Shown: positions 1-18,166, numbered from the stretch's first letter. The stretch: 64,000 nucleotides of DNA from Bacillota bacterium (GCA_021827745.1 JAKAUI010000058.1:10249-74248); one strand, 5' to 3'. The notes: generated by a model not told the origin, from the sequence alone. Numbers and translations are program-made.

Positions 1-830
1 CGGCTGATCCTGCCGATGGCTCCCGAACAGCTGAACCACATGCCGCCCGGACCAGGGGTCAGAGGCCAGGGGCAGCTCTCGCCAGAGTTCGAAAACGACG
101 AGTTGCCCACGCCGGGCACGCCTGCCGAGAACAGAGAGAAGGTCCCAGTCGGGGTGATCCGGCCGATGCCCAGAGGTGCGTTGTTGCCGCCCGTGAGGCT
201 GGATGGCGGTAGGACCACAAACCACAAATTACCGGATGAATCAGGAGCATAGACGAACGCGTGTGGACCAGACACCAGGAACATCTGGTCGCCGTTCGGT
301 AGGCAGGTGAGGCGGACAGGCACCGTGCTGGCGGGTTGCCCGGGAGACGACAGGCTGGTGCGTGTGTTGCACCAGGATGGGAGGGTGACCGAGACGGTGG
401 TGGGGGTACTGCTGCTGGCAACTTTGGCGGCACTGACTGACACCACAACTGGGGCCGAGGTGGCCACCACCTGGCCCTTGCTGCTCGTGGCCAGCTCGGC
501 CGTGAATCGATAGGAGCCGGGAGCCAGGCTGAGCTTGATCGAGTTGGAGAACAGGATGTTCCACAGCTTGCCGTTCTCGTAGAGTCGGATCTCACCACTG
601 CCTGGCTGGGCCGTGGTGGCAGAATTGGCCAGGGTGAAATGGGAGACGGAGAAGCGGATCGTGAGATCAGTGGACGTCTGGGAGGAAGGGATCTTCAGGG
701 TGGACCCGGTGACGGGAGAGACGATCCTGATCGATGGCTTTACGGCCGGTGTCGCAGGCGCGCCACAGCCGGCGACTGCAAGCAGCAGGCACGGCAGCAC
801 GAGCAGGTGGACGAGCGATCTACTCGGCAT
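1..830 (-). CDS. Ig-like + Vgb-like beta-propeller lipoprotein, array copy A (3' end outside window)
   Basis: Not in the ORF track because it has no stop in the window. Manual translation from ATG 830 (GAAGGAGG RBS) gives MPSRSLVHLLVLPCLLLAVAGCGAPATPAVKPSIRIVSP...IRLYENGKLW...RLTCLP...APDSSGNLWFVV...GPGGMWFSC, open to base 1 and clearly paralogous to copies B-H. Confidence 0.85.
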   Translation of the reverse strand, partial: MPSRSLVHLLVLPCLLLAVAGCGAPATPAVKPSIRIVSPVTGSTLKIPSSQTSTDLTIRFSVSHFTLANSATTAQPGSGEIRLYENGKLWNILFSNSIKLSLAPGSYRFTAELATSSKGQVVATSAPVVVSVSAAKVASSSTPTTVSVTLPSWCNTRTSLSSPGQPASTVPVRLTCLPNGDQMFLVSGPHAFVYAPDSSGNLWFVVLPPSSLTGGNNAPLGIGRITPTGTFSLFSAGVPGVGNSSFSNSGESCPWPLTPGPGGMWFSCSGAIGRIS

Positions 831-876
831 CCGGATCCTCCTTCGCAGGTGAGCAGGGAGGCAGACACCGTGACTG

Positions 877-904
877 AGAGCCGCTCCCTCTAGCAAATGG
901 TTCC
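877..904 (-). promoter_or_regulatory. Putative ECF-sigma promoter of copy A (GGAACC-N16-GGCTCT)
   Basis: Same motif and 16-nt spacer about 45-50 nt upstream of the start in each array gene. Confidence 0.6.
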
Positions 905-1077
905 CGGCGGCGATGGGTCGTCCTGTGTAGATAACGATGCCAAAGTCGCGGTCCATGCCTAGAGCGAAGGTGGAAATCAAGAACCATCGTCTGGTCGGAG
1001 GTGTCCGATCCCGCTGAGATAAGGTGTCGTCTGGGATGTCCGTCCCATTCGGATCCTAGGAGATACCCCGACGGCCT

Positions 1078-2994
1078 CTAGGGAAGATTAGCGGTCGTGC
1101 TCGACGGGCTGATCTGGCCGAAGAATGTTGGCGCGTTGGACCCAGAGCGGGCCATCCCCCAGAAGCTCAGGTCGCCCGTCGGACCGAGGACGAGAGAGCC
1201 AAGGCCGTACCCTGCAGGCAGACCCGTAGAGAACACGCTGACCGTGCCGGATGGGCTGACCTTGCCGATGAACGGCCCCGAGTGAGAGTTCTGGTTCCCG
1301 ATGAACCAGATGTCGCCGCCCGGTTCTAATGTCAGGCCGGTCAAGAAACAGGACGTCGGAACCGAACAAGAAGCGAGTGGAGAGAAGCCCTTAGAGACGA
1401 CGCTGACCGTGCCGGACGGGCTGATCCTGCCGATGAAGTTGGTCTTGTTGGCTTCCGAGCCGAGGAACCACATATCACCTCTCACACCGGGGACAAAATT
1501 GCCAACAGAAGACGTCGAGGCAGGCAGGCCCTGGGTGACGCGGGTGACGGTTCCCGACGGGCTGATCCTATCGATGAAGCTCGCATGGTTGGGGCCTGCT
1601 CCGGCGAGCCAGATGTCGCCACTAGGGCCTATTCTCAAAATGCCCACTCCGCACCCAGCCGTCTGAGGCGAGCAAGGAGCCGATGGATACAGGTCATTGG
1701 TGAACCGGGTGACGCTGCCCGAGGGAGTGATCAGGCCGAAGCCTGTGGATCCGGGCTCTACACTGCTGCCAATGTAAAACAGCATGTCGCTGCCAGGGCC
1801 CGGGTGCAGGCACGACTGCGCCCAATCGGTACACATTTGTTGAAGACCCTGGGTAAACAGGGTGACTGCTCCAGACGGAGTGATTTTGCCGATGAAGCTC
1901 GGGTTGCTGGAGCCGTTCACGCTGGGGACGTTGGGGTTGTTGCCGGTGAACCACATGTTGCCGCCCGGACCCAAGGTCAAGGAACCAACTTGACAAGATG
2001 CCGGAGCCGAACCAGAGGCGGCCGGACACAGGCCCTTGGTGAACACGCTTGCCGTCCCCGACGGGCTGATCTTGCCGATGAAGTTGGTCTTGTTGGCTTC
2101 CGAGCCGACGAACCACATGTCACCGCCCAGACCGGGGACGAAATCACCGATAGAAGAGGTCGCGGCAGGCAGGCCCGTGGTGAACAGGCTGACCGTGCCG
2201 GACGGGCCGATCCTACCGATGGTTCCCGAGCAGCTGAACCACATGCCGCCGGGGCCAGGCGTCAGAGGCCAGGGGCAGGTGTCGCCAGAGTTCGAAAAGG
2301 GCGAGCTGCCCACGCCGGTCACGCCTGCCGAGAACAGGGAGAAGCTCCCGGCTGGGGTGATCCGACCGATGCCCAGAGGCGCGTTGCTGCCCCCCGTACC
2401 GAATGGCGGCGCGACCACAAACCACAGGTTGCCGGATGAGTCGGGAGCGTAGTAGAACTCATCAAAACCAGTCACCCTGAATATCTGGTCATCGCCGGGC
2501 AGGCAGGTCAGGCGGACGGACACCGTGCTGGCGCTCTGTCCGGTGGACGAGAGAGTGGCGCGGGTATTGCACCAGGCTGGGAGGGTGACCGAGGTGGAAG
2601 CACTAAGCGACATCGCAACTGGCGCCGAGGTGGCCACCACCTTGCCGTTCGTGACCAATTCGGCCTTGAACTGATAAGAGCCAGGACCAAGGCCGAGGCT
2701 GATCGAGTTGGAGGTCACCATGCCCCACAACTTGCCGTTCTCGTAGAGCCGGATCTGGCCGCTGCCCGATTGGGCGGCGCTGGCAAAATTGACCAGGGTG
2801 AAGTGAGAGACGGAGAAGCGGATCGTGACCGTGGTGGACGGTCGGAAGGAAGGAATCGTCAGGGTGGACCCGCTCGCAGGGGAGACGATTCGGATCGACG
2901 GTTTTGCGGCCGGTGTCGCAGGCGCGCCACAGCCGGCGGCAGCAAGCAGCAGCCACGGCAACACCAGGAGGCGGACGAGCGATCTACCAGGCAT
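1078..2994 (-). CDS. Ig-like + Vgb-like beta-propeller lipoprotein, copy B (9 repeats)
   Basis: Start moved to MPGRSLV (RBS GAAGGAGG); signal peptide with lipobox LAAAGC; repeats GPGGxxWF...IG[RK]I[TS]PSG...F..GLP. Confidence 0.88.
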   Translation of the reverse strand: MPGRSLVRLLVLPWLLLAAAGCGAPATPAAKPSIRIVSPASGSTLTIPSFRPSTTVTIRFSVSHFTLVNFASAAQSGSGQIRLYENGKLWGMVTSNSISLGLGPGSYQFKAELVTNGKVVATSAPVAMSLSASTSVTLPAWCNTRATLSSTGQSASTVSVRLTCLPGDDQIFRVTGFDEFYYAPDSSGNLWFVVAPPFGTGGSNAPLGIGRITPAGSFSLFSAGVTGVGSSPFSNSGDTCPWPLTPGPGGMWFSCSGTIGRIGPSGTVSLFTTGLPAATSSIGDFVPGLGGDMWFVGSEANKTNFIGKISPSGTASVFTKGLCPAASGSAPASCQVGSLTLGPGGNMWFTGNNPNVPSVNGSSNPSFIGKITPSGAVTLFTQGLQQMCTDWAQSCLHPGPGSDMLFYIGSSVEPGSTGFGLITPSGSVTRFTNDLYPSAPCSPQTAGCGVGILRIGPSGDIWLAGAGPNHASFIDRISPSGTVTRVTQGLPASTSSVGNFVPGVRGDMWFLGSEANKTNFIGRISPSGTVSVVSKGFSPLASCSVPTSCFLTGLTLEPGGDIWFIGNQNSHSGPFIGKVSPSGTVSVFSTGLPAGYGLGSLVLGPTGDLSFWGMARSGSNAPTFFGQISPSSTTANLP

Positions 2995-3040
2995 CCAGAC
3001 CCTCCTTCCCAGGTGAGCACAGAGGCAGACACCGAGACAG

Positions 3041-3068
3041 AGAGTCCCTCCCTCCAGCAAATGGTTCC
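3041..3068 (-). promoter_or_regulatory. Putative ECF-sigma promoter of copy B (GGAACC-N16-GACTCT)
   Basis: Conserved bipartite motif, exact 16-nt spacer. Confidence 0.65.
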
Positions 3069-3264
3069 CAGCGAAGGTGAGTCGTCCTCTCTGTATCGCG
3101 GCGCCAGCGCCCTAGGAAAGCGGCGAACGAAGATCTTGGGTTTATTCCCCTGCGAAGAAGAGGACCCAAGGCCCCTGACAGGCTGAGGGTGGCCGGTCCT
3201 GCGGAGAAGGGTGTCATGTGAGTCGTCCGTCCGATTCGGATCCTAGGAGACACCAGATGGGCCT

Positions 3265-5112
3265 CTAGGGAAGATTAGCGGTCGTGCCCGACGGGCTGAT
3301 CTGGCCGAAGAATGTTGGCGGGTTGGGGCCAGAGTCGACGCTCCCGAAGAAGCTCAGATCGCCTGTCGGCCCTTGGACGAGATCGCTTACGCTGGACGTC
3401 GACACAGGCAGGCCTTTGGTGAACAGCGTGACCGTCCCGGACGAGCTGATCTCGCCGATGAACGGTGGCCCCGAGTTGGCACTCGCGTTCCCCAGGAACC
3501 AGATTTCGCCGCCCGGGCCTAGTGTTAGGTTGCCTACAGAGCAAGACATAGGAGTCGAACAAGAAGCGGACGGATACAGGCCCTTAGAGAACACGCTGAT
3601 CACGCCTGACGGACTGATCTTGCCGATGAAGTCGGCGTTGTTGGAGCCTGAGCCGACAAACCACATATTGCCGCTCGGGCCAACGACGAGATTGCCACTA
3701 AAGGACGTCGACGCAGGCAGTCCCTTGGTGAAGTGGGTGATGGTCCCGGACGGACTGATCCTGTCGACGAAGCTCACATGGTTGGGGCCTGATCCGGCGA
3801 GCCAGATGTCGCCACTAGGGCCTATTGTCAAACTGCCCACTCCGCACCCAGCCGTCTGAGGCGAGCAAGGAGCCGATGGATACAGGTCATTGGTAAACCG
3901 GGTGACGCTGCCCGAGGGAGTGATCAGGCCGAAGCCGGTGGATCCGGGCTCTACACTGCTGCCAATGTAGAACAGCATGTCGCTGCCAGGGCCCGGGTGC
4001 AGGCACGACTGCGCCCAATCGGTACACATTTGTTGAAGACCCTGGGTAAACAGGGTGACTGCCCCAGACGGAGTGATCTTGCCGATGAGGCCGCGGCCGG
4101 TGAACCAGATGTCACCGCCGGGGCCCAATGTCAGATCGTTCCCATAGCAAGCTGAGCCGGTCGAACATGTAAACAGTGGATGCAGGGCCTTTGCCAACAC
4201 GGTGATCGTACCCGACGGCGTGATTTTGCCGATGAAGTTGGTGTGAGATGAGCCCGTACCGTCGAACCACAGATCCCCGCCCAGACCAGGGACGAAATTG
4301 CCAATAGAAGACGTCGACCCAGGCAGGCCCTTCGTGAACAGACTGACGGTTCCGGAGGGGCTGATCCTGCCGATGGATCCAGGACAGCCGAACCACATGC
4401 CGCCGGGCCCAAGTGTCAACGGATAGAGGCAGATCTCGGCAGGGCCCGGAGACAGCAAGCTGTTCCCGGGTGTCGCGAACAGGGAGAAGGTCCCGGTCGG
4501 GGTGATTCGGCCGATGCCCAGAGGTGCGTTGCTGCCCGTGAGGCTAAATGGCCTTCCGACGACAAACCAGAGGTTGCCCGATGAGTCAGGAGCATAGAAG
4601 AAGTTGCCTGGGGAGGTTTCATGGAAGATCTGCTCACCAGCAGGCAGGCAGGTGAGGCGGAGAGATACCGTACGGGCGGGCTGTCCGTTGGACGTGAGGC
4701 TGATGCGCGTATTGCACAAGGACGAGAGAGTGGCCGAGACGTGGGCGGCGCTGACCGTCACGACAACGGGTGCCGAGGCGGCCATCACCTTGCCGTTCGT
4801 GACCAGCTCGGCCGTGAATCGATACGAGCCGGCAGCAAGGATGAGACCGATCGAGTTGGAGGTCACCATGCCCCACAATTTGCCGTTTTCGTCCAGTCGG
4901 ATCTGGTTACTGCCGCCGGCGGTGAAGTGAGAGACGGCCCACCGGACGGTGACTGCTTCGGTAGGCCCGCTCGTCACGAAATTGGACCCAGTTGCTGGCG
5001 AGACGATCCGGATCGAAGGCTTTGCGGCTGGTGTGGCCGGAGCGCCACAGCCGACGGCAGCGAGCAGCAGCCCCGGCAACACGAGGAGGCGGACGAACGA
5101 TCTACCAGGCAT
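3265..5112 (-). CDS. Ig-like + Vgb-like beta-propeller lipoprotein, copy C (9 repeats)
   Basis: 615 aa ORF, GGAGGAGG RBS, lipobox AAVGC, nine W/F repeats. Confidence 0.88.
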   Translation of the reverse strand: MPGRSFVRLLVLPGLLLAAVGCGAPATPAAKPSIRIVSPATGSNFVTSGPTEAVTVRWAVSHFTAGGSNQIRLDENGKLWGMVTSNSIGLILAAGSYRFTAELVTNGKVMAASAPVVVTVSAAHVSATLSSLCNTRISLTSNGQPARTVSLRLTCLPAGEQIFHETSPGNFFYAPDSSGNLWFVVGRPFSLTGSNAPLGIGRITPTGTFSLFATPGNSLLSPGPAEICLYPLTLGPGGMWFGCPGSIGRISPSGTVSLFTKGLPGSTSSIGNFVPGLGGDLWFDGTGSSHTNFIGKITPSGTITVLAKALHPLFTCSTGSACYGNDLTLGPGGDIWFTGRGLIGKITPSGAVTLFTQGLQQMCTDWAQSCLHPGPGSDMLFYIGSSVEPGSTGFGLITPSGSVTRFTNDLYPSAPCSPQTAGCGVGSLTIGPSGDIWLAGSGPNHVSFVDRISPSGTITHFTKGLPASTSFSGNLVVGPSGNMWFVGSGSNNADFIGKISPSGVISVFSKGLYPSASCSTPMSCSVGNLTLGPGGEIWFLGNASANSGPPFIGEISSSGTVTLFTKGLPVSTSSVSDLVQGPTGDLSFFGSVDSGPNPPTFFGQISPSGTTANLP

Positions 5113-5157
5113 CCAGACCCTCCTCCCCAGGTGAGCACAGAGGCAGGCACGAGACTG

Positions 5158-5185
5158 AGAGTCTTTCCCCGTAGGAAATGGTTCC
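5158..5185 (-). promoter_or_regulatory. Putative ECF-sigma promoter of copy C (GGAACC-N16-GACTCT)
   Basis: Conserved bipartite motif, exact 16-nt spacer. Confidence 0.65.
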
Positions 5186-5334
5186 CGGCGGCGATGAGTC
5201 GTCCTGTTTAGATAGCAGTGCCAAAGTCACGGTCGATGCCTGGAGCGAAGGTGGAAATCGAAAACCTGAGCCCGACCGGCGGTGTCCGATCCTGCTGTGA
5301 AGCGTGTCGTCTGAGAGGTCCATGCGACTTGCCG

Positions 5335-7245
5335 CTAGGGAAAGGGTGTGGTCGTGGTGGACGGGGTGATCTGGCCGAAGAATGTTGGCGCGTCATGCCC
5401 AGGGTCGGCGAACCCCAGGAAACTCAGGGTCCCTGTCGGACCAAGGCTCAGTGAGCCCAGTTCGTACGCTGCAGGCAAGCCCTTAGAGAACACGCTGACC
5501 GTGCCGGAGGGACTGATCCTGCCGATGAACGGCGGTGCCGAGCCAGTGCTCGTGGATCCCAGGAACCAGATGGCGCCGTCCGGGCCTGCTGTCGGGTCGC
5601 TCACAAAGCAAGATGCCGCAGTAGAAGCAGCGCTGGCCGGACACAGAGCCTTTGTAAACAGCGTCACGGTCCCAGACGGACTGATCTTGCCAATGTAGCT
5701 GGCGTTGCTGGGCCCGTAGCCGCTGAACCAGACGGCACCGTCAGGACTCAATGTCAGGTGGCCCAGAGAGCAGGAAGACGAACAAGGACCGGACGGATAC
5801 AGGCCCTTGGTGAACAGCGTGACGGTCCCGGACGGGCTGATCTTGCCGATGAACGTTATCGCCGGGTTGGTGGACGCGTACCCGGTGAACCAGACGGTAC
5901 CGTCAGGACTCAATGTCAAGCCACTCGGAGAGCAGAAAGTCGAACAAAGAGCGGACGGAGCCAGGCCCTTCGTGAAGTGGGTGACGGTTCCTGACGGGCT
6001 GACCTTATCGATGAAGATGGGGTTGTTTGGGCCCGATCCGGCGAGCCAGATGTCGCCGCCAGGGCCCACTGTCAGGTCGCTCATAAAGCAAGACGGCTGA
6101 GCCGGACAAGAAGCGGACGGATACAGGGCGTTGGTGAACCGGCTGACGCTCCCAGACGGAGTGATCAAACCGAAGCCAATTGTTGCGTTGGCTGTAGTGC
6201 CGCCGACGGAGAACAACATGTCGCTGCCAGGCCCCGGTTGCAGGCACGTCTGCTCGGCCAAGCCGGGACACATCGCTTGAAGGCCCCGGGGAACAAGGGT
6301 GACGGCGCCAGACGGACTGATCATGCCAATGAAGCTGGTGTTGTTGGACCCGTATCCACGGAACAAGATGTCGCCGTTCCGGCCCCATGTCAGGTCGTTC
6401 AGAGCGCAGGACGTCGGAGTCGAACAATAGGCGGATGGAGCCAGTCCCTTGGTGAACAGACTGATCGTGCCGGACGGGACGATCTTGCCGATGACTCCCG
6501 GACAGCCGAACCACATGCCGCCGGGACCAGGTGTCAAGGGGTACAGGCCGCTCGACAGGCAGCCGGATGTAGAGAGTCCCTTCGAGTACACGGAAAAGGT
6601 CCCGGTCAGGGTGATCCGACCGATGCCCAGACGCGCGTAGGTGACTCCCGTGCCGGATGGCGGGGCGACCACAAACCACAGATTGCCGGATGAGTCAGGA
6701 GCGTAGAACTCGTGAAAACCGGTCATCCTGAAAATCTGATCGCCGCCCGGCAAGCAGGTCAGGCGAACGGACACCGTGCTGGCGGGCTGCCGATCGGACA
6801 TGAGACCGGTGCGCGTGTTGCACCAGGATGGGACGGTGACCGAAACGCCGGCGTTGCTGGCAACACCGCTGCTGCCATTGACCGACACCACAACTGGCGC
6901 CGAGGTGGCCACTACCTTCCCTTTCCCGACCAACTCGACCTTGAACTGATAAGAGCCTGGACCAAGGCTGAGGCTGATCGAGTTGGCGGAAACTGCGGCC
7001 CGCCACTTGCCGTTCTCGTACAGTCGGATCTGGTCGCTGCCGCCGGCGGTGAAGTGAGAGACGGCCCACCTGACGGTGACCGTGGTGTCCACCTGGGAGG
7101 ACGAGATCTTCAGGCTGGATCCATTGGCAGGCGAGACGATCCGGATCGAAGGCTTTGCCCCTGGTGTGGCCAGAGCGCCACAGCCGGCGGCAGCGAGCAG
7201 CAGGCAAGGCACAAGCAGGAGGCGGACTAGTGACTTATGAGACAT
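5335..7245 (-). CDS. Ig-like + Vgb-like beta-propeller lipoprotein, copy D (9 repeats)
   Basis: 636 aa ORF, RBS GAGGAGG, lipobox AAAGC, nine repeats, many Cys-pair loops. Confidence 0.88.
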   Translation of the reverse strand: MSHKSLVRLLLVPCLLLAAAGCGALATPGAKPSIRIVSPANGSSLKISSSQVDTTVTVRWAVSHFTAGGSDQIRLYENGKWRAAVSANSISLSLGPGSYQFKVELVGKGKVVATSAPVVVSVNGSSGVASNAGVSVTVPSWCNTRTGLMSDRQPASTVSVRLTCLPGGDQIFRMTGFHEFYAPDSSGNLWFVVAPPSGTGVTYARLGIGRITLTGTFSVYSKGLSTSGCLSSGLYPLTPGPGGMWFGCPGVIGKIVPSGTISLFTKGLAPSAYCSTPTSCALNDLTWGRNGDILFRGYGSNNTSFIGMISPSGAVTLVPRGLQAMCPGLAEQTCLQPGPGSDMLFSVGGTTANATIGFGLITPSGSVSRFTNALYPSASCPAQPSCFMSDLTVGPGGDIWLAGSGPNNPIFIDKVSPSGTVTHFTKGLAPSALCSTFCSPSGLTLSPDGTVWFTGYASTNPAITFIGKISPSGTVTLFTKGLYPSGPCSSSCSLGHLTLSPDGAVWFSGYGPSNASYIGKISPSGTVTLFTKALCPASAASTAASCFVSDPTAGPDGAIWFLGSTSTGSAPPFIGRISPSGTVSVFSKGLPAAYELGSLSLGPTGTLSFLGFADPGHDAPTFFGQITPSTTTTPFP

Positions 7246-7290
7246 TCCGACCCTCCTCTCCAGGCGAGCGCAGAGGCGACACCATGACTA

Positions 7291-7318
7291 AGCGTCTGCT
7301 CGAGTGGCAAGTGGATCT
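7291..7318 (-). promoter_or_regulatory. Degenerate version of the array promoter motif, copy D (AGATCC-N16-GACGCT)
   Basis: Same position and spacer as in the other copies, with mismatches in both boxes. Confidence 0.4.
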
Positions 7319-7506
7319 AGGAGGCGCGTGTCACCCTGCGACGGACGACTCAGGCGATGGCGACTGGGGACATCTGCCCTCCCGGCTGCAATTTGTCCAC
7401 CGACCTTCTTGTCGCTTGGGCCGGGGGCCGCAGTCGGTCAGCCGCACCAGCTGCCGGAAGCGGAACCCGCGATGGAGGCGCATTAGCCCTACCGTAGGTG
7501 GGCATT

Positions 7507-9339
7507 CTACGGCGAGGCGGCCGCCGCCGTGACCAGCCCCAGGCCCTCCGTGTTGGCGTTGACGGCCCAGAAAAACCACAGGCGTTTGCCTGGTCCCGAT
7601 GTCAAGTGGTTACCGCTAGGCAGGTGGCTTTTCGTGAACAGGCTGATCGTCCCGGACGAAGTGATCTCTCCGATCGAGAACTGGCCTCCGTTACCCGTGT
7701 AGACGGTGAACCAGAGGTTTCCGCCAGGGCCGAGGACCAAACGCCCCAGGTAGTCTCCGGCAGGCAGGCCCTTGGTGAACAGGTTGACGGTCCCAGACGG
7801 CCCGATCCTGCCGATGCTTGTCGTAGAAGCGTTGCATCCGGTGGATACGGTGAACCACATAGCGCCCGCCGAGCCTGGGGTCAGGCCGCTCAGATTCGGA
7901 CAAGAAGCGGCCGGCGGCAGGCCCTTGGTCAGCAGCGTGATCGTTCCAGACGGCGTGATCCTGCCAATGGACGCTTGGCCTCCGCTACTGCCGCATCCTG
8001 ATCCTGTGGACAAGGTGAACCACATGTCGCCGCCTGGGCCTGGGGTCAGGCCGATGCCGCCGTATTCCAACGACAAGCCACCCAGCGTCGGACAGGACGC
8101 AGCCGGTGGCAGGCCCGTGCTGAAGAGTGAGACCGTCCCGGACGAAGGGATCTTGCCGATGTCTGAGACCCACGGCCCGCGGCATGAACTCCCCGCTGCG
8201 AACCACAAGTTGCCGCCAAGGTCTGGCGTCAATCCGGCCAGTCCAGAGCAGGTTCCGGCCGGGAGGCCCGTGGGAAACACGGAGATGACTCCGGACGGGG
8301 TAATTCGGCCGATCGAGAGGACACCCCCCATCTTCCCGAAAACGGTGAACCACAGGTTGTCGCCAGGGCCGGGGACCAAAGGCCCCGGATAGCCTCCGGC
8401 AGGCAGGCCCTTGGTGAACAGCGTGATCGCGCCGGCCGGGGTGATCTTGCCGATCGAGAACGAGCTCCCGCTGCCGGTGTAGACCGTGAACCACTGGTCG
8501 CCGCTTGTGCCCAAAGTCAGGTCGCTCAGATAGCCGGCTTTGGGCAGACCCTTGGAGAAGAGCGTGATCGCCCCGGACCGGGTGATCCTGCCGATCGCTC
8601 CCTGACAGGGGAACCACAGGCCACCTGGCCCAGGTGTCAGTGGGTAGGGCCCGTCCGGCCCGCAATCGGATGCGGGCAGGCCCTTCGTGAATACGGACAT
8701 GGCCCCAGACGGGGTGATCCTGGCAATCCCTCGAGCGGAGTTGTCGTTCGTCGAGCCGAGCACAAACCACAGGTTGCCGGAGGAATCAGGCACAAAGAAG
8801 AAGTCATGTGGCGAAGTGATATGAAACACGGTGTCGGCACCAGGTAGGCAGAAGAGACGGATGGAGACTGCCTGGGCCCCCGCCGAGCCGGTGGTCACGC
8901 CCCGGGGCGAATCGGGGCAGGCGTGCCTTGCTGTCCCTAGCCATGGCAGCGAACTGACGGACAGCACGGAGGTCGCCGAGGTGGCAACCACGCTGCCGTT
9001 TGTCACCAGCACGGCCCTGAGCAGGTAGGAGCCGGGAGCCAGATCGAGGCGGATCGAGCTTGTGGAAGAAACCGCCACTGCCTTGCCGTTCTCGTACAGC
9101 CGGATCTGGCCGCTGCCTGGTTGGGTGTTGCCGCTTGCGTCGACCAGGGTGAAATGGGAGACGGACACGCGGACTGTGACTATGGCCACCGCCCGACTGG
9201 TCAGCGGGAGATTGGAGCCGGTGGTCGGCGCGAGGATGCGGACCGCCGGCTGGGTTGGTGCCACCGAACTGCCACACCCGGAAACGGCGAGTAGCAGACA
9301 GGCAGTCAGGAGAAGGCGGACCCGGGGTCTATCATGCAT
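7507..9339 (-). CDS. Ig-like + Vgb-like beta-propeller lipoprotein, copy E (9 repeats)
   Basis: 610 aa ORF, lipobox AVSGC, nine WF repeats. Confidence 0.88.
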   Translation of the reverse strand: MHDRPRVRLLLTACLLLAVSGCGSSVAPTQPAVRILAPTTGSNLPLTSRAVAIVTVRVSVSHFTLVDASGNTQPGSGQIRLYENGKAVAVSSTSSIRLDLAPGSYLLRAVLVTNGSVVATSATSVLSVSSLPWLGTARHACPDSPRGVTTGSAGAQAVSIRLFCLPGADTVFHITSPHDFFFVPDSSGNLWFVLGSTNDNSARGIARITPSGAMSVFTKGLPASDCGPDGPYPLTPGPGGLWFPCQGAIGRITRSGAITLFSKGLPKAGYLSDLTLGTSGDQWFTVYTGSGSSFSIGKITPAGAITLFTKGLPAGGYPGPLVPGPGDNLWFTVFGKMGGVLSIGRITPSGVISVFPTGLPAGTCSGLAGLTPDLGGNLWFAAGSSCRGPWVSDIGKIPSSGTVSLFSTGLPPAASCPTLGGLSLEYGGIGLTPGPGGDMWFTLSTGSGCGSSGGQASIGRITPSGTITLLTKGLPPAASCPNLSGLTPGSAGAMWFTVSTGCNASTTSIGRIGPSGTVNLFTKGLPAGDYLGRLVLGPGGNLWFTVYTGNGGQFSIGEITSSGTISLFTKSHLPSGNHLTSGPGKRLWFFWAVNANTEGLGLVTAAAASP

Positions 9340-9386
9340 GAGGACCGTCCTCTCCAGGCGAGAGCGAGAGCCGACACCATCACTGC

Positions 9387-9414
9387 AGAGTCTTTCTCTT
9401 TAGAAAACGGTTCC
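9387..9414 (-). promoter_or_regulatory. Putative ECF-sigma promoter of copy E (GGAACC-N16-GACTCT)
   Basis: Both boxes conserved although the spacer sequence differs. Confidence 0.65.
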
Positions 9415-9538
9415 CGCGAGCCGCGGGTCCTCCTCCGTCAAGCCGTCGGAATCCGGCCGGTAGGCAGAGAGACGACAGCGGTTGCCCGTCGGCCGGTGCG
9501 TCTTACAGTCGCAGTGCGCGCAGGGGCAATTCCCGAGG

Positions 9539-11440
9539 CTACGGGACGGAGACCGTGACTCGCCCGACGGCGAAGTACGGGCTGAAGGGGCCGCAGCCGC
9601 AGAAGTTCTCCGGAGGGGCCACCGAAGCGCCGTCGCCACCTACGAGGCTGCCGTAGCCAAACCACAGGGTGTTGTTGGCCCCGGAGACCAACCAGCTTGC
9701 CTTGGCGATCGAGTTGGCCGGCAATCCTCGATGGAAGAGGGTGACCGTCCCCGACGGGGTAATTTGACCGATGGCGAGCGAGGCACTTGTGCCGACAGAG
9801 GTCTCGAACCACAGAGTTCCATTTGGCCCAGGTAGCAGCGGGCTCAGACTGGCGCCAGTCGGTAGACCGCTCGAATAGAGGGTAATCATGCCGGATGGAG
9901 TGATCTTGCCGACCGAGGGCTGGCCGGTGGGACTCGTCGTTTCGACGACGAACCACATGTCACCGCCCGGGCCCGGCACCAGGCCGCCGCCATACGCATG
10001 TGCAGGCAGGCCTTTGGTGAACACGCTGATCGTGCCTGATGGACTGATCTGCCCGATGCCCATGGACCCGTTGCATGGCCCAACCCCGGCGAACCAGCCA
10101 ATGCAGGCGACAAACCACATGTCTCCCTGAGAGCCGAAGACCAGATTGCCAGCGGGGCCGCCGGATGGCTGGCCGGATGGGTTCGTAGCCATGGGTATGC
10201 CCTTCGAGAAGAGGGTGATGGCCCCAGACGGGGTGATGCGGCCGATGGCGGACTGACCACTGTTAGTGCCGGCGGTGAACCACAGATCGCCCCTCGGGCC
10301 CGACACGAGGCGGCCCAGAGAAGCCCACCCACTCAATCCCTTTGTGAAGAAGGTGACAGATCCAGAGGGGTTGACCCGACCGATGGCCGACAAAGTCCCG
10401 GTCGTCGATCTCGCCGGTTGAACAGTAAACCATAGGTCTCCACCAGCACCTGGCAGCAGGTCAGACGTTACCGCTGCCGCAGCCAGGCTGGATGGGAACA
10501 GGGAGATCGTCCCGGATGGTGTGATCCGGCCAATGGGCCTGGTTCCGCTGGTACCGACGCGAAAGACTGTGAACCACAGGTCGCCGCCGGGACCCATCAC
10601 GAGACCTCTCGGATAGTCCCCAGCAGCCAGGCCCTTGGAGAATACGGAGATGTTTCCGGATGGGGTGATCCGGCCGACGGCACCACCCGCGCCATAGCCA
10701 GAAAGATCGATCGTGAACCATAGGTCGCCGCCGGGTCCTACAACCAGATCCGACAGGGTGGCCGCTGCAGGCAGGCCCTTCGAGAAGACCGAGGTGGTCC
10801 CGGAGGGCGTAACCCGGCCCACGCCCGACGGGGAGCCGTTCGTAGATCCCGCCGGCTGGATCAGAAACCACATGTCGCCGTTCGAGAACTGCACCAGCGC
10901 AGGGTGCGACCCTGGGAGAGGCTCCCACATTCCATAGGCGGCCGGCAGGCAGGAGAGACTGATCGAAACGGTCTCCGCCGGGCTGACAGGTCGGGTTACA
11001 CCAGGCGTCAAGGAGTGGCAGCTGGGTGAGGCGGCGAGCGTCGGTGCGACCACCGTAACCAGGTCCGGTGCGGAGATGGCCACCACCTTGCCGTTCGTGA
11101 CCAGTTCGGCCCTGAACTGATAAGAACCAGGACCAAGGCCGAGGCGCACCGAGTTGGAGGTCGCCATGCCCCACAACTTCCCATTCTCGTACAGCCGGAT
11201 CTGACCGCTGCTCGGTTGGGCAGCGGTGGCAAAGTTGACCAGGGTGAAGTGGGAGATCGAGAAGTGGATGGTGACCGTCGCGGACACTTGAGCGGACGCA
11301 AGATTCAGGCTGGACCCGTTCGTCGGGGAGACGATCCTGATCGAAGGCTTGGCGGTTGGTGTCGCAGGCGCACCACAACCGGCGGCAGCCAGCAGAAGGC
11401 AGGGCACCAGGAGCAGGCGGAAGGGGGACCTGCCGTGCAT
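9539..11440 (-). CDS. Ig-like + Vgb-like beta-propeller lipoprotein, copy F (9 repeats)
   Basis: Start moved to MHGRSPF (RBS GGAGGAGG); lipobox AAAGC; nine WF repeats. Confidence 0.88.
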   Translation of the reverse strand: MHGRSPFRLLLVPCLLLAAAGCGAPATPTAKPSIRIVSPTNGSSLNLASAQVSATVTIHFSISHFTLVNFATAAQPSSGQIRLYENGKLWGMATSNSVRLGLGPGSYQFRAELVTNGKVVAISAPDLVTVVAPTLAASPSCHSLTPGVTRPVSPAETVSISLSCLPAAYGMWEPLPGSHPALVQFSNGDMWFLIQPAGSTNGSPSGVGRVTPSGTTSVFSKGLPAAATLSDLVVGPGGDLWFTIDLSGYGAGGAVGRITPSGNISVFSKGLAAGDYPRGLVMGPGGDLWFTVFRVGTSGTRPIGRITPSGTISLFPSSLAAAAVTSDLLPGAGGDLWFTVQPARSTTGTLSAIGRVNPSGSVTFFTKGLSGWASLGRLVSGPRGDLWFTAGTNSGQSAIGRITPSGAITLFSKGIPMATNPSGQPSGGPAGNLVFGSQGDMWFVACIGWFAGVGPCNGSMGIGQISPSGTISVFTKGLPAHAYGGGLVPGPGGDMWFVVETTSPTGQPSVGKITPSGMITLYSSGLPTGASLSPLLPGPNGTLWFETSVGTSASLAIGQITPSGTVTLFHRGLPANSIAKASWLVSGANNTLWFGYGSLVGGDGASVAPPENFCGCGPFSPYFAVGRVTVSVP

Positions 11441-11490
11441 TTTGGACTTTCCTCCTCCGAAATGAGGCCACAGGCGATTGCTATGACTGA

Positions 11491-11518
11491 AGAGTCCCCG
11501 GGTTCGGCAAAGGGTTCC
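11491..11518 (-). promoter_or_regulatory. Putative ECF-sigma promoter of copy F (GGAACC-N16-GACTCT)
   Basis: Conserved bipartite motif, exact 16-nt spacer. Confidence 0.65.
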
Positions 11519-11685
11519 TGCCGACGCTCTAGCGTGCCCCGCGTAGCCAGCCATCTCGGCAGGCTCGGTCGGCAGCATGCGGTCCCGAAATCGTTGGCCA
11601 GCCTTTGGGCGCCTGTGGGCTCGGACTGCTGCCTTAGCCGCGTTCCCAATGCTACCTCGCTACCTCCTGGACCCCAGGCAGACAT

Positions 11686-13089
11686 CTAGGGAACAGCGGT
11701 GGCGTTGAGCGTTAGGCTGAGCCGTCCGATGAAGCTGGCGCCATTGGAGCGACTGCCCACGAACCACACAGCGCCCCTGAAACCAAGGAGAGGGCGATCA
11801 CGAGAGCTCAAGGTATAGCCAGAGGGCAGACCCCAAGTGAGCACGCTGCTCGTGCCAGATGGGGTGATCTGGTCGATGGAGATCGTGTTGTTGGTGCCCA
11901 GACCATAGAGCCACATCTTGCCGTCTGGGCCCGGGCTGGGACCGCCCGGTAGAGTGGTTCCCCCTGGCATGCTGAACATGCGGATTGCGCCAGACGGAGC
12001 GATCTTGCCGACGAAAGAACCAGAGTTGGCGTTCCCGCTGAACCACATATCGCCGCTCGGACCGGGGGCAAGAGAGTTGGTCCACATATTGACGGGCAGG
12101 TCCTTCGTGAATACCTGGACGACTCCGGACGGACTGACCTTGCCGATGCCTCCCAGATAGCCGAACCACATATCACCGACCTTGCCGGGGACGAGGGGAT
12201 TGATCCACATATTGGCGGGCAGGCCCTTCGTGAATACCTGGACGACTCCGGACGGACTGACCTTGCCGACGTCTCCCTGAGAGTCGAACCACATGTTGCC
12301 CCCAGATCCCGCTGTCAGGGACAACACGTACCTGTTGAACATAGTGACGGTTCCCGACGGGGTGATCATGCCGAAGCCAGCGTACCCCGGCCCATAGCCC
12401 GCGTTGGGGATGGTGGTGAACCACATGTCGGCGCCAGAGCCTGATTTCAGGAACACAACGCCTGACTTGGGCAGTCCCTTGGTGAACACCGTGACGACTC
12501 CGGCTGGATTGACCGTGCCAACGAATGGTCGAGAGCTGGCAGATCCGGAAAACCACATATCGCCGCTACCGCTAAGGGCGAGACTGCCAATTCGGGTGCT
12601 CGGAGGCAGGCAGGTGAGGCGAATGGACGCCGTGTTCGGCGGTTGCGTGTTGGCCACTGCCGCAGAGGGTGTCCCGCATCCAACGGTCGACAAGATGGTG
12701 GTCGGGACCAAGGCGTTGACGACCGAGACGGCGGAGGGCGCCGAGGTAGCCACGACCTTGCCGCTCTTGACCAAGGTTGCCTTAAAGAGATAGGTGCCTG
12801 GCACCAGGCTGAGGCTGATCGAGTTGGATACCAGCACGTCCCACAGCTTCCCGTTCTCATACAGCTGGATCTGGTCGCTGCCTCCCAGGGTGAAGTGGGA
12901 GACAGCCAAGCGGACCGTGACATTGATCGGCCCCGCCACTCGGGGGTTCATCCGCAGGGTGGACTCGGTGGCGGGCGAGACGATGCGGACCTCAGGCTTC
13001 ACAGCTGGTGTCGCAGGCGCACCACAGCCCGACACAGCAAGCAGCAGGCAGGGCACCAGGAGGAGGCGGAGGAGAAATCTACGGTGCAT
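11686..13089 (-). CDS. Ig-like + Vgb-like beta-propeller lipoprotein, copy G (7 repeats)
   Basis: 467 aa ORF, RBS GGAGGAGG, lipobox AVSGC, close relative of copy H with fewer repeats. Confidence 0.88.
   Translation of the reverse strand: MHRRFLLRLLLVPCLLLAVSGCGAPATPAVKPEVRIVSPATESTLRMNPRVAGPINVTVRLAVSHFTLGGSDQIQLYENGKLWDVLVSNSISLSLVPGTYLFKATLVKSGKVVATSAPSAVSVVNALVPTTILSTVGCGTPSAAVANTQPPNTASIRLTCLPPSTRIGSLALSGSGDMWFSGSASSRPFVGTVNPAGVVTVFTKGLPKSGVVFLKSGSGADMWFTTIPNAGYGPGYAGFGMITPSGTVTMFNRYVLSLTAGSGGNMWFDSQGDVGKVSPSGVVQVFTKGLPANMWINPLVPGKVGDMWFGYLGGIGKVSPSGVVQVFTKDLPVNMWTNSLAPGPSGDMWFSGNANSGSFVGKIAPSGAIRMFSMPGGTTLPGGPSPGPDGKMWLYGLGTNNTISIDQITPSGTSSVLTWGLPSGYTLSSRDRPLLGFRGAVWFVGSRSNGASFIGRLSLTLNATAVP
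12081..12296. repeat. Tandem duplication of one propeller repeat (123-bp period) inside copy G
   Basis: 12081-12173 and 12204-12296 are near-identical (GKVSPSGVVQVFTK.LP.NMW twice). Confidence 0.8.
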
Positions 13090-13137
13090 TTTGAACCTTC
13101 CTCCTCCGAATCAGCCCACAGGCGACGCCCTCACTGA

Positions 13138-13165
13138 AGAGTCCCCAGGTTCGGCAAGAGGTTCC
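13138..13165 (-). promoter_or_regulatory. Putative ECF-sigma promoter of copy G (GGAACC-N16-GACTCT)
   Basis: Conserved bipartite motif, exact 16-nt spacer. Confidence 0.65.
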
Positions 13166-13316
13166 TGCCGACGCTCTATCGTGCCCTGCGGGGTCAGCCA
13201 TCCCGGCAGACTCGGTCGGCGGCAGGCGGTCCCGAAACAGCTGACCAGCCCTTGGTCGACTGTGGGCTCGGGCTGCTTGGGCTCTTGATGCTACCTCCTG
13301 GACCCCAGGCAGACAT

Positions 13317-15047
13317 CTAGGGAACAGCGGCGGCCTTCCCCGCCAGACTAAGCTGGCCGATGAACCTGGTGCCGTTGGAGCGACGGCCGGAGAACCACAA
13401 ATCGCCTCTCAAACCGCTTACGAGCGGATCGGATGAGCTAAAGGTGTCGCCTGCGGGCAGGCCCCAGGTGAGCACCGTGCTCGTGCCAGCCGGTGTGATC
13501 TGGTCGATGAAGAGGGTGTCGTTCTGGCCGAGGCCATAGAGCCACATGCTACCGTCTGGGCCCGGGATGGGACCGCCCGGTAGAGTACCTCCCCCAGACA
13601 GCCCCTTGGCCAGAACGCTGACCGTACCAGATGGGGCGATCTTGCCGACGAAAGAGCCAGAGTTGGCGTTCCCGGTGAACCACATATCACCGCGCGGACC
13701 GGGGACCAGAGGATTGGTCCACATATTGGCGGTCAGGTCCTTCGTGAATACCTGGACGACTCCGGACGGACTGACCTTGCCGATGCCTCCCAGAGAGCCG
13801 AACCACATAGCGCCGCCAGATCCCGCTGTCAGGGACAACACGTACCTCGTGACCGTGGTGACCGTTCCCGACGGGGTGATCATGCCAAAGCCGGAAAACC
13901 CCGGGCCGTATCCGTCGTTGGGGCTGGTGGTGAACCACATGTCGGCGCCAGAGCCTGATTTCAGGATCACAGCGCCCGACTTGGGCAGTCCCCTGGTGAA
14001 CACCGTGACGACTCCGGCTGGACTGACCGTGCCGACGAATGGGCGAGAGCTGACGGATCCGGAAAACCACATATCGCCACCCGGACCAGGGATGGGACTG
14101 CTCGACAGATAGCTCCCGGTCGACACATAGCTCCCGGCCGGCAGGTCCGTGGTGAACAGGGTGATCGTGCCGGAAGGGGTGATCTTGCCGATGAAGCCTG
14201 AGCCGGAGAACCACATGTCGCCGCCAGCGCCAAGGACGAGACTGTTAATTGTGGCGCTCGGAGGCAGGCCTTTGGTGAACACGCTGATCGTACCGGATGG
14301 ACTGACCTTGCCGATGGCTCCTGGACAAGCGAACCACATGCCTCCCGGGCCAGGGGTCAGAGAGTTCAAGCAGCTGGATCTATTCCCGCTCGGCCGGAGA
14401 GCGGCTTCCGGGAGACCCTGAGAGAACAGGGAGAAGGCCCCAGACGGGGTGATCCGACCGACTCCCAGCGGTGAGCCGGCTGCCGATCCGACCACAAACC
14501 ACAGGTTTCCGGATGAATCAGACTCAGCGGCGAAGCCCCCTTGATACATCGAGTCAGTGTTTGGCAGACAGGTGAGGCGGATAGACGCCGAGTTTCGCGG
14601 TTGCGTGTTGGCCGCTGCCGCAGCGGCTGCCCCGCATCCAACGGTCGACAAGATGGTGGTCGGGACCAAGGCGTTGACGACAGAGACCGCGGATGGCACC
14701 GAGGTGGCCACGACCTTGCCGCTCTTGACCAAGGTTGCCGTGAACAGATAGGTGCCCGGCACCAGGCTGAGGCTGATAGAGTTGGAGAAGAGTGTGTCCC
14801 AGAGCTTGCCGTTCTCGTACAGCCGGAGCTGGTCGCTGCCTCCCAGGGTGAAGTGGGAGACAGTCAGGCGGATCGTGACATTGATCGGCCCCGCCACTCG
14901 GGGGTTCATCCGCAGGTTGGACCCGGTGGCGGGCGCGACGATACGGACCGAAGGCTTTACAGCTGGTGTCGCAGGCGCACCACAGCCCGACACAGCAAGC
15001 AGCAGGCAGGGCACCAGGAGGAGGCGGAAGAGGGACCTACCGTGCAT
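13317..15047 (-). CDS. Ig-like + Vgb-like beta-propeller lipoprotein, copy H (9 repeats)
   Basis: Start moved to MHGRSLF (RBS GGAGGAGG); lipobox AVSGC; nine repeats. Confidence 0.88.
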   Translation of the reverse strand: MHGRSLFRLLLVPCLLLAVSGCGAPATPAVKPSVRIVAPATGSNLRMNPRVAGPINVTIRLTVSHFTLGGSDQLRLYENGKLWDTLFSNSISLSLVPGTYLFTATLVKSGKVVATSVPSAVSVVNALVPTTILSTVGCGAAAAAAANTQPRNSASIRLTCLPNTDSMYQGGFAAESDSSGNLWFVVGSAAGSPLGVGRITPSGAFSLFSQGLPEAALRPSGNRSSCLNSLTPGPGGMWFACPGAIGKVSPSGTISVFTKGLPPSATINSLVLGAGGDMWFSGSGFIGKITPSGTITLFTTDLPAGSYVSTGSYLSSSPIPGPGGDMWFSGSVSSRPFVGTVSPAGVVTVFTRGLPKSGAVILKSGSGADMWFTTSPNDGYGPGFSGFGMITPSGTVTTVTRYVLSLTAGSGGAMWFGSLGGIGKVSPSGVVQVFTKDLTANMWTNPLVPGPRGDMWFTGNANSGSFVGKIAPSGTVSVLAKGLSGGGTLPGGPIPGPDGSMWLYGLGQNDTLFIDQITPAGTSTVLTWGLPAGDTFSSSDPLVSGLRGDLWFSGRRSNGTRFIGQLSLAGKAAAVP

Positions 15048-15095
15048 CCGGACCCTCCTCCCCCGAACGAGCGCAGATGCCGCAACCAAGAGTTA

Positions 15096-15123
15096 GGAGT
15101 CTTCGCCCCAGGGAAATGGTTCC
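15096..15123 (-). promoter_or_regulatory. Putative ECF-sigma promoter of copy H (GGAACC-N16-GACTCC)
   Basis: Conserved bipartite motif, exact 16-nt spacer. Confidence 0.62.
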
Positions 15124-15292
15124 CGGAGGCGTCGTGATGTCCTTGCCGAGCTCAATCGGATAGGGCTGCCGGCAACATCCAGACTCCAGCGATTGCGAAG
15201 CGCCCGTCTGCTGCCGAGACTCCGAGGCCTAAGGCGCCGGGCGCGCCGAAGATGACCGGCAGGATGTCGGCCGACTTGATGCGGGGTGTGGT

Positions 15293-16438
15293 CTAAAGTC
15301 CGAAGCGGATCGTCGACAAGATGGGCGGCGGCGGGGCGTCCTGGCGTATGATCGCCTCCACCAGGTCACCGATCACCGGTGCGAACTTGAAGCCGTGACC
15401 GGAGAAGCCAGCTGCCAGAACCACCTGGGGCAAGGCCTTCAGCCGGCCGATCAGGAAGTTGCGGTCCGGGGTGTTGGTGTAGCAGCTCACGCTGCTCGCA
15501 GCGATCGAGGAGCCGAGAGCTGGTAGGAAGGTGGATGTGGCGCCGACGACCACCTGCCGGTCTTGGTCCGAGACCGCGCGGTCGAGTTCGTTCATGGTGG
15601 TGGTGACGCCGTGGTGGTGGCGGGCCGCCTTCGCCCATTTCCCATCGACGGCCGGGATGCCGTAAAATATCTGGTCGTCGTCGCTCTCGTGCATCCAGAT
15701 CGGCAGCCGCTCAGGCTGAAACAATGAGGGGTCTGGCGGTGCGAACCAGTGCTGCACTTGGCGCTCGACGGCGAGGGGAAGTCCAAGGTCTGGCAGGAGC
15801 TCGCTGGCCCAGCCGCCGGCGGCCACCACCACCTGCTCAAAGTCGCGAGATCCCTGGGCCGTGTGCACCCGGACGTGGTCGCTTGCCGCCTCCAGGCGCA
15901 GCACCTGGTCGTGGACGAGCGTCAGCGGGTGTGAGGTGTGGCGCGCTGCCTGGACCAAGGTTGTGACAGAGGTCTCGCAGGCGAGGACTCCGGCCTGGTG
16001 TTCGTAGATGCCGACCACATCGGTCGGGAGCCGAAACTGCGGGAAACGCTCTTCGATCTCTTGCGCCGACAGCTCCTGATGGCGCAACTCGTGGCGCTGC
16101 ACGCTGGTGAGCGTGCCAGCGATCAGTTCACCATCTGGGCGGCCGATCATCAGCCCGCCGGTCTGGGTCAGAAGAGAGCGGCCGGAGACCCGCTCCAGCT
16201 CCTGCCATCTGCCCCAGCTGCGCCGGATCAGAGGCACGTAGTCCGGGTGTTCGTAGTAGGCCTGACGGATGATGCGGGTCACACCCTGCGAGGAGCCGAA
16301 CTGATGCCCGGGCATCAGGCGCTCATAGCCCACTACGGCCTGCCCGCCCGCACCAAGCCGCCAGCAGATGGCGGCTCCCATCACACCGAGACCGACCACG
16401 CCGACCTCGTCCACGGACCATCCGACTCCTTGGGCCAC
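15293..16438 (-). CDS. solA: N-methyl-L-tryptophan oxidase / monomeric sarcosine oxidase family FAD oxidoreductase
   Basis: VVGLGVMG FAD motif, GSSQGVTRIIRQAY, CYTNTPD (flavinylated Cys), GFSGHGFKFAP; alternative start GTG 16414. Confidence 0.85.
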   Translation of the reverse strand: MAQGVGWSVDEVGVVGLGVMGAAICWRLGAGGQAVVGYERLMPGHQFGSSQGVTRIIRQAYYEHPDYVPLIRRSWGRWQELERVSGRSLLTQTGGLMIGRPDGELIAGTLTSVQRHELRHQELSAQEIEERFPQFRLPTDVVGIYEHQAGVLACETSVTTLVQAARHTSHPLTLVHDQVLRLEAASDHVRVHTAQGSRDFEQVVVAAGGWASELLPDLGLPLAVERQVQHWFAPPDPSLFQPERLPIWMHESDDDQIFYGIPAVDGKWAKAARHHHGVTTTMNELDRAVSDQDRQVVVGATSTFLPALGSSIAASSVSCYTNTPDRNFLIGRLKALPQVVLAAGFSGHGFKFAPVIGDLVEAIIRQDAPPPPILSTIRFGL

Positions 16439-16476
16439 CTACCGTTAACGCTAGCACAAATACTGGCCCAAGTCGC

Positions 16477-17928: not shown

Positions 17929-18166
17929 CGACGCTACACCATCCTTCTGCGTAACAGCAGAGTAGACGATGAAATGAGTGTGCGCAAGACCTAAGAGCGG
18001 TTGACTTTTTCCCAATAACGGTAAACTCAAGCCAGACGCAGGCGGGAGGAAATCATCGAGAGATAGCGGCCCAGCGCCGCCTCGTTTCAGCACGATGGTG
18101 GCCTGCGGGAATGGGGCAGGGCCTGTCGCACGACCGGCGCCCGAGGGTGTTTCGCCAAGTCTTCAA

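Follow-up and report, generated by a model that had tools for sequence, protein, structure and literature searches.

We found that a tandem array of lipoprotein genes in an uncultured Bacillota bacterium is accompanied by a repeated two-part motif, GGAACC-N16-GACTCT, and this motif probably serves as the core promoter for an alternative, stress-response sigma factor of the extracytoplasmic function (ECF, group 4) type. The array lies in a stretch of 64,000 nucleotides (nt), here called the window (G000:C38:10249-74248), from an assembly of 1.62 Mb (G000; 66.6% GC, 64 contigs, 96.8% complete). Eight tandem genes on the minus strand occupy positions 1-15047. They encode proteins of 467-643 amino acids (aa), each of which begins with a lipoprotein signal, such as LLLAAAGCG, and contains beta-propeller repeats of the Pfam family Vgb_lyase (PF24684). 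The intergenic gaps between these genes are 199-270 nt. In addition, the array extends past the window on contig C38 with one further paralog, which has its own motif at C38:9051, and a second array is located on contig C64, where the motif precedes two of the four paralogs.

The window was scanned for GGAACC-N16-GACTCT with at most one mismatch, and 100 dinucleotide shuffles were used as background. There were seven matches, all on the minus strand, against an expectation of 0.36 (standard deviation 0.54), and none of the 100 shuffles had as many as seven. The motif is therefore more frequent than background. All seven copies listed in the original prediction are present, including the variants with GGCTCT (877-904) and GACTCC (15096-15123), and the spacers quoted there are correct. 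A degenerate eighth copy, AGATCC-N16-GACGCT, was likewise found where it had been described, at 7291-7318. From 15123 down to 877, the distances between the end of the second (-10) box and the ATG, computed from the gene coordinates, are 48, 48, 50, 47, 45, 45, 46, and 46 nt for the eight genes, in agreement with the earlier figure of about 45-50 nt, and GGAGG stands ahead of the array ATGs. In the whole 1.62-Mb assembly there are five exact copies of GGAACC-N16-GACTCT, all within the C38 array. The features are given below, with scores from a weight matrix that was built from array sites only (a site before a SIMPL gene, described later, was left out of the matrix).

15096..15123, minus strand: promoter-like motif GGAACC-N16-GACTCC, 32.2 bits; -35 box 15118-15123, -10 box 15096-15101; 48 nt before the ATG of array gene 1
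13317..15047, minus strand: array gene 1, 576-aa lipoprotein with lipobox LLAVSGC and Vgb_lyase-type propeller repeats
13138..13165, minus strand: motif GGAACC-N16-GACTCT, 28.9 bits
11686..13089, minus strand: array gene 2, 467-aa lipoprotein
11491..11518, minus strand: motif GGAACC-N16-GACTCT, 32.0 bits
9539..11440, minus strand: array gene 3, 633-aa lipoprotein
9387..9414, minus strand: motif GGAACC-N16-GACTCT, 25.2 bits
7507..9339, minus strand: array gene 4, 610-aa lipoprotein
7291..7318, minus strand: degenerate copy AGATCC-N16-GACGCT, 14.7 bits
5335..7245, minus strand: array gene 5, 636-aa lipoprotein, reading frame intact, behind the degenerate motif
5158..5185, minus strand: motif GGAACC-N16-GACTCT, 33.5 bits
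3265..5112, minus strand: array gene 6, 615-aa lipoprotein
3041..3068, minus strand: motif GGAACC-N16-GACTCT, 32.0 bits
1078..2994, minus strand: array gene 7, 638-aa lipoprotein
877..904, minus strand: motif GGAACC-N16-GGCTCT, 30.4 bits
1..830, minus strand: array gene 8, which leaves the window and is 643 aa long in the contig

The matrix scan of G000 gave 11 sites of at least 25 bits, 10 in the arrays and 1 before the SIMPL gene. The next site was the degenerate copy, whose 14.7 bits compare with at least 25.2 for the good sites and at most 13.2 for the background; this copy is probably a weak or dead promoter. The claim that every array gene has its own motif was overstated, since two of the four C64 paralogs have none.

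Conservation of the two boxes

The footprint of the motif was studied in a gapless alignment of 18 array sites from three genomes of the genus (eight from C38 and two from C64 in G000, seven from G001, and one from G002). The consensus is cGGGAACC-a-TTT-gc-N10-GWCTCT, which can be shortened to the model GGGAACCnTTT-N12-GWCTCT. The -35 box is GGAACC in 16 of the 18 sites, GGAGCC in one, and GGAACT in one. The -10 box starts with GTC in seven sites, GAC in seven, GGC in two, GCC in one, and CTC in one, and never with CGT. The element is also present at the paralogs of G001 and G002, where its -10 box deviates slightly, as in GGGAACCATTTACTCCAGTCTTG-GTCTCA.

In its layout the motif resembles ECF promoters. 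Passages of PMC5758882 give AAC in the -35 element as common to ECF promoters and an adjacent T-tract (tGAAACnTTTt) as functional, and the array motif has such an AAC-containing -35 box. A T-tract is also present: 17 of the 18 array sites have TT at spacer positions 3-4, and 13 have TTT at positions 2-4. The spacer between GGAACC and GWCTCT is 16 nt long in all 18 array sites, in the SIMPL orthologs (3/3), and in the motif-bearing orthologs of a 492-aa lipoprotein (2/2), both described below; this agrees with the rigid spacer that ECF sigma factors need according to parts of a preprint (doi 10.1101/534826). The T-tract is absent from the sites of the 492-aa lipoprotein, from the SIMPL site of G002, and from the upstream region of an ECF gene on contig C10.

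To separate selection from descent, the C38 array sites were compared with those of C64, G001, and G002. The proteins of the two groups are 35-50% identical, so neutral DNA between the groups is expected to be randomised. The cross-group identities were as follows.

27 nt upstream: 0.30
-35 box: 0.97
spacer nt 1-6: 0.65
spacer nt 7-16: 0.30
-10 box: 0.79 (G 0.9, W 0, CTC 1.0, T 0.7)
downstream: 0.33-0.36
random expectation: 0.262

Bipartite conservation of this kind would be expected for a -35/-10 pair. The earlier proposal that the boxes are kept by selection, beyond recent duplication, is well supported: the boxes stand at 0.79-0.97 with the distal spacer and the flanks near random, and the motif is also found before unrelated genes.

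Two weaker blocks were seen outside the boxes. The first lies about 12-24 nt upstream of the -35 box (e.g., 3080-3092 and 5197-5209) and has the sequence ACAGGACGAC at the C38 sites, with GGCAGGCCGAC at those of C64, G001, and G002; a single G is kept in all groups. This block might act as an UP-like element or bind an activator. The second, which is partly conserved, lies where the presumed leader begins, about 8-25 nt downstream of the -10 box (e.g., 3018-3035), and reads CAGTCACGGTGTCTGCC in C38 and TGATCACGGTGCCTG in G001 and C64. When reverse-complemented, the upstream block looks similar to the downstream one (GGCAGGC / GCCTGCC), and an RNA stem between the two found support neither in covariation nor in predicted structure.

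The motif before other genes

The eleventh matrix site, with 31.2 bits, precedes a SIMPL/DUF541 gene at about position 2893 of contig C49. The orthologs of this gene have the motif in all three genomes, as GGAACC-N16-GCCTCT, GGAACT-N16-GATTCT, and GGAACC-N16-GACTCT, and their spacers and flanks are mutually unrelated. In addition, a 492-aa lipoprotein gene at G000:C43:106, whose product has no Pfam match, is preceded by GGAACT-N16-AACTCT in G000 and by GGAACC-N16-CGCTCT in G001; the motif was looked for but not found at the G002 ortholog, so that two of the three orthologs have it. Two further genes of G001 have the motif upstream, one for a 681-aa propeller lipoprotein of the BNR/Ycf48 type and one for a 500-aa protein in which the N-terminal part of the array family is joined to BNR repeats. 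A lipobox or a signal anchor is present in every motif target.

In the 500-aa lipoprotein (L067:4730-6232 on G001:C32), BNR/Asp-box repeats replace the Vgb-lyase-type blades behind the array N-terminal domain of about 130 aa. This arrangement suggests domain shuffling within the putative regulon.

With a relaxed pattern, GGAAC[CT]-N18-[CT]TCT, G000 gave 19 matches and the reversed control 8. The array, SIMPL, and lipoprotein sites account for 12 of the 19, and one site is counted twice through an overlap of contigs C26 and C43. The last ~100 nt of C26 are the first ~100 nt of C43, and the promoter-like site of the 492-aa lipoprotein is within this overlap; since the end of one contig is identical to the start of the other, the two probably join. 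Two further genes for BNR-type propeller lipoproteins have look-alike upstream sites whose second box is off consensus: GGAACC-N16-GTGTCA at G000:C7 ~4500-4600 (minus strand) and GGGAACC-N17-GGTCTGA at G000:C39 ~11330-11380 (plus strand). These sites may be weak regulon members or chance matches.

Outside the genus the picture is different. Among 40 relatives, the array lipoprotein family (E <= 1e-10) was found only in G001 and G002, which are of the same genus, and in the relatives outside the genus the motif occurred 0-4 times per genome, like the reversed-pattern control. Furthermore, 80 loci (485 kb) from other phyla with distant homologs of the propeller domain gave 0 strict and 2 relaxed matches. 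The motif is therefore a property of the genus and not of the protein family. One look-alike, GGGAACCATTTTCCGCTGAGCGGGACTCC, was noticed in another genus of the same order (L018, G003:C34:4785-4811), about 170 nt upstream of a gene for a BMP-family (PnrA-like) lipoprotein.

Candidate sigma factors and competing explanations

The sigma factors of G000 are RpoD (encoded inside the window), a SigH-like protein, SigI, and two ECFs, one on contig C10 and one on C43. The SigH and SigI genes, together with a protein bearing SLH domains, agree with a placement in the Bacillota. A sigma region-4 search of G000 gave no further sigma genes; the extra candidates proved to be a NarL-type response regulator, a LuxR-type protein, a YlxM-like protein, and an 84-aa helix-turn-helix protein. 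The sigma-54 profile PF04552 had no match in the 96.8% complete assembly, and no ECF gene was found in the window.

Of the ECFs, the C10 ECF (G000:C10:18685-19227) alone has orthologs in both G001 and G002. Its identity is 78-86% within the genus, and the next best homolog outside has about 40%; the upstream regions of ECF homologs in other genera (at most ~40% identity) were uninformative. Against NCBIfam, the ECF superfamily model is above its cut-off and all other matches are below the family cut-offs. The gene overlaps a conserved downstream gene for a single-pass membrane protein of 197 aa, which is plausibly the anti-sigma factor. In all three genomes the region upstream of the C10 ECF holds GGGAACC, a variable stretch of 16 nt (G000, G002) or 17 nt (G001), and then GATCGGTA, and the distance of this element to the start is 47-49 nt. 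Counted over both strands, the 1.62 Mb contain GGGAACC 133 times, which corresponds to a chance of roughly 0.25% per 60-nt stretch. The original prediction had expected an autoregulated ECF gene with the same motif; GGGAACC and the 16/17-nt spacing are there in three of three genomes, but the gene's own -10 is GATCGG instead of GWCTCT. If the essential -10 dinucleotide were TC, its distance from GGAACC would be 18-19 nt at the C10 ECF versus 19 nt in the array, a difference that the usual tolerance of one nt would allow. As the C10 ECF shares the -35 and the spacing but not the -10, the assignment is tentative, and we regard the chances that it is the cognate sigma factor of the array motif as evenly balanced. 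Matches to a separate regulon with the -10 of the C10 ECF (GGAAC-N16-19-GATCG and variants) were background-like, and at the best of them, C1:38278, there is an overlap with the end of the preceding reading frame.

The motif might also be a real alternative-sigma promoter that is read by another sigma factor, namely the SigH-like protein, SigI, the C43 ECF, or one missing from the ~97% complete assemblies. The differing -10 of the C10 ECF speaks for this, and so does the presence of the SigH-like and SigI genes in all three genomes. Moreover, the C43 ECF (G000:C43:12234-12767) has ACCATTTG, the same 8 nt as the array motif, at a promoter-like distance of about 65 nt before its start, with a poor -35 box, CAGACC. 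However, the consensus sequences of SigH (AGGAWWT...GAAT) and SigI (ACCCC...CGWA) do not fit the array motif. Furthermore, no ortholog of the C43 ECF was found in G001 and G002, both of which bear the motif; the second ECF of G001 has no GGAACC upstream; the regions upstream of SigI in the three genomes have no motif; and a GGAAC-type -35 with an adjacent T-tract is an ECF trait according to passages of PMC5758882. We therefore consider another sigma factor unlikely.

Much less likely still is that the boxes are the binding site of a transcription factor or other DNA-binding protein. Within groups, sequence outside the boxes is partly conserved, namely the GGCAGGCCGAC / ACAGGACGAC block 12-24 nt upstream of the -35 box and, some 15 nt downstream from the -10 box, GGTGCCTG. 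In addition, the intergenic regions yielded no other promoter, so RNA polymerase has to be recruited by something located there; a search of positions 1-16500 for housekeeping sigma-70 promoters (TTGACA-N16-18-TATAAT-like) gave one match, on the plus strand at 15639-15668 and before no array gene, and shuffles averaged 2.3. The boxes themselves, however, form neither a palindrome nor a mutual direct repeat, as dimeric regulators usually need. Their asymmetry, the fixed 16-nt gap, and the 45-50 nt to the start codon have the look of a -35/-10 pair, and at the unrelated SIMPL gene the two boxes alone are common.

Least probable of all is an inherited duplication remnant or a part of a structured 5' leader RNA without promoter function: neighbours do share long upstream stretches (877 with 5158, 11491 with 13138) and 3 of the 18 spacers are able to form small hairpins, but between groups the flanks and the distal spacer are at random identity with the boxes at 0.79-0.97, the motif stands before unrelated genes at orthologous positions, an RNAalifold consensus of 14 aligned regions has 0 pairs, and no intergenic region has an Rfam match at E values up to 1. 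A spacer hairpin with compensatory changes (TTTCC/GGAAA, TTTCT/AGAAA, TGC/GCA) was rejected, as only those 3 of 18 spacers beat 95% of shuffles. The folding energies of seven intergenic regions were no different from those of shuffles.

Several points weigh against an ECF promoter read by the C10 ECF. The 18 sites belong to paralogs and are non-independent, and the G001 spacers are near-identical among themselves. The array -10 is unlike the CGT type of Firmicutes ECF promoters. The -10 of the C10 ECF lacks the CTC/TCT that is invariant in the array, its promoter scores below 12 bits on the array matrix, and ECF sigma factors are described as strict on the -10 in parts of doi 10.1101/534826. 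As the collection holds only three genomes of the genus, the co-occurrence of the C10 ECF and the motif carries no statistical weight. The blocks outside the boxes are partly conserved within groups, and thus a further factor may bind there. A search for RNA runs containing window positions 800-9500 gave none, and three metatranscriptome runs of the same study contained next to none of the sequence words sampled from these positions. Finally, the motif is missing at two of the four C64 paralogs and at the G002 ortholog of the 492-aa lipoprotein; therefore, the regulon is not uniform.

Proposed promoter, related systems, and neighbouring features

In the model that we favour, an ECF-type promoter, we infer promoter function, the sigma factor, the transcription start, and any inducer from the sequence. 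Sigma domain 4 would bind GGAACC as the -35 element, and domain 2 would bind a -10 element within GWCTCT; the TTT next to GGAACC would correspond to the -35-proximal T-tract of ECF promoters. The transcript would begin a few nt past GWCTCT, with a leader of about 40 nt ending in the GGAGG ribosome-binding site. Each paralog would have kept its promoter after duplication, so that most array genes could be started separately, and the gene behind the degenerate copy would probably depend on read-through or be poorly expressed. The same signal before other exported proteins would make up a small envelope regulon specific to the genus, and the cognate sigma factor would most likely be the C10 ECF, with the membrane protein as its putative anti-sigma factor.

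The earlier idea of an ECF regulon is thus partly supported: strongly for a promoter-like motif under selection, and also for the ECF-like layout (AAC in the -35, T-tract, fixed 16-nt spacer), but the expectation of an autoregulated ECF gene with the same motif holds only by half. The single-gene units of the earlier idea are hypothetical: a simple scan found no intrinsic terminators in the intergenic regions, and one gene has only the degenerate copy, so some read-through is likely.

In G000, at least 10 tandem paralogs have their own motif, in addition to the SIMPL gene and other lipoproteins. It is possible, though doubtful, that these belong to a genus-specific ECF regulon, almost all of exported beta-propeller lipoproteins, with two -10 dialects, GATCGG on the sigma factor's own gene and GWCTCT on its targets. 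If so, separate tuning of autoregulation and output would be possible, and each new gene copy would become a regulon member automatically.

Three known systems can be compared with the array motif. The first is sigma-E of Escherichia coli (RpoE, ECF02), for which passages of PMC3326320 describe the -35 GGAACTT with a downstream T-tract, a spacer length of about 16 nt, and a regulon made up of envelope proteins. However, the -35 is GGAACC here and the -10 in the window is GACTCT and not of the GTC type; the host is a high-GC uncultured member of the Bacillota, and the targets are tandem beta-propeller lipoproteins and not genes of outer-membrane biogenesis. The -10 of G001 and C64 (GTCTC) appears to resemble that of sigma-E.

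For sigma-V, sigma-W, sigma-X, as well as sigma-M of Bacillus subtilis, the relevant parts of PMC5758882 likewise give AAC in the -35 and a T-tract one base on (tGAAACnTTTt, against GGAACCnTTT here). Furthermore, the autoregulatory promoter of sigX has CGAC, versus CGTC in its regulon, so that an autoregulatory -10 may differ from that of the regulon, as would be the case for the C10 ECF. Unlike these promoters, the array motif has no CGT in the -10, and its -35 begins with GG and not with TG. In Mycobacterium tuberculosis, the sigma-H promoter (GGAACA/GTT) has a GGAAC-type -35 (GGAAYA), a short G-initial -10 (GTT), and a strict spacer, as far as the parts of doi 10.1101/534826 describe it; its optimal spacer is 17 bp versus 16 here, and its -10 is GTT versus GWC with the invariant TCT here.

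The motif is thus probably a case of a known type of gene control, here in an uncultured bacterium, and the general understanding of ECF regulation is unchanged. What is gained is a promoter model, GGGAACCnTTT-N12-GWCTCT, compared across genomes, for a mine-drainage bacterium with a genome of 1.6 Mb; a compact putative envelope regulon is defined, and one candidate sigma/anti-sigma pair is named. In addition, tandem duplicates that kept individual promoter-like motifs under selection argue that the paralogs may be expressed genes and not decaying copies.

Some further features of the array and its surroundings were observed. Compared with solved structures, array gene 6 has virginiamycin B lyase as its sole sequence match (E 5e-15, residues 422-566). 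Homologs of the propeller part (residues ~140-591) of the array proteins occur at 33-49% identity in many phyla, among them Solirubrobacterales, Acidimicrobiia, and Nitrospirae, and very few of these homologs match the N-terminal ~130 residues. Two genes upstream of the array, at 16477-18093 on the minus strand, the window encodes a D-Ala-D-Ala carboxypeptidase (Peptidase_S11) fused to SLH domains.

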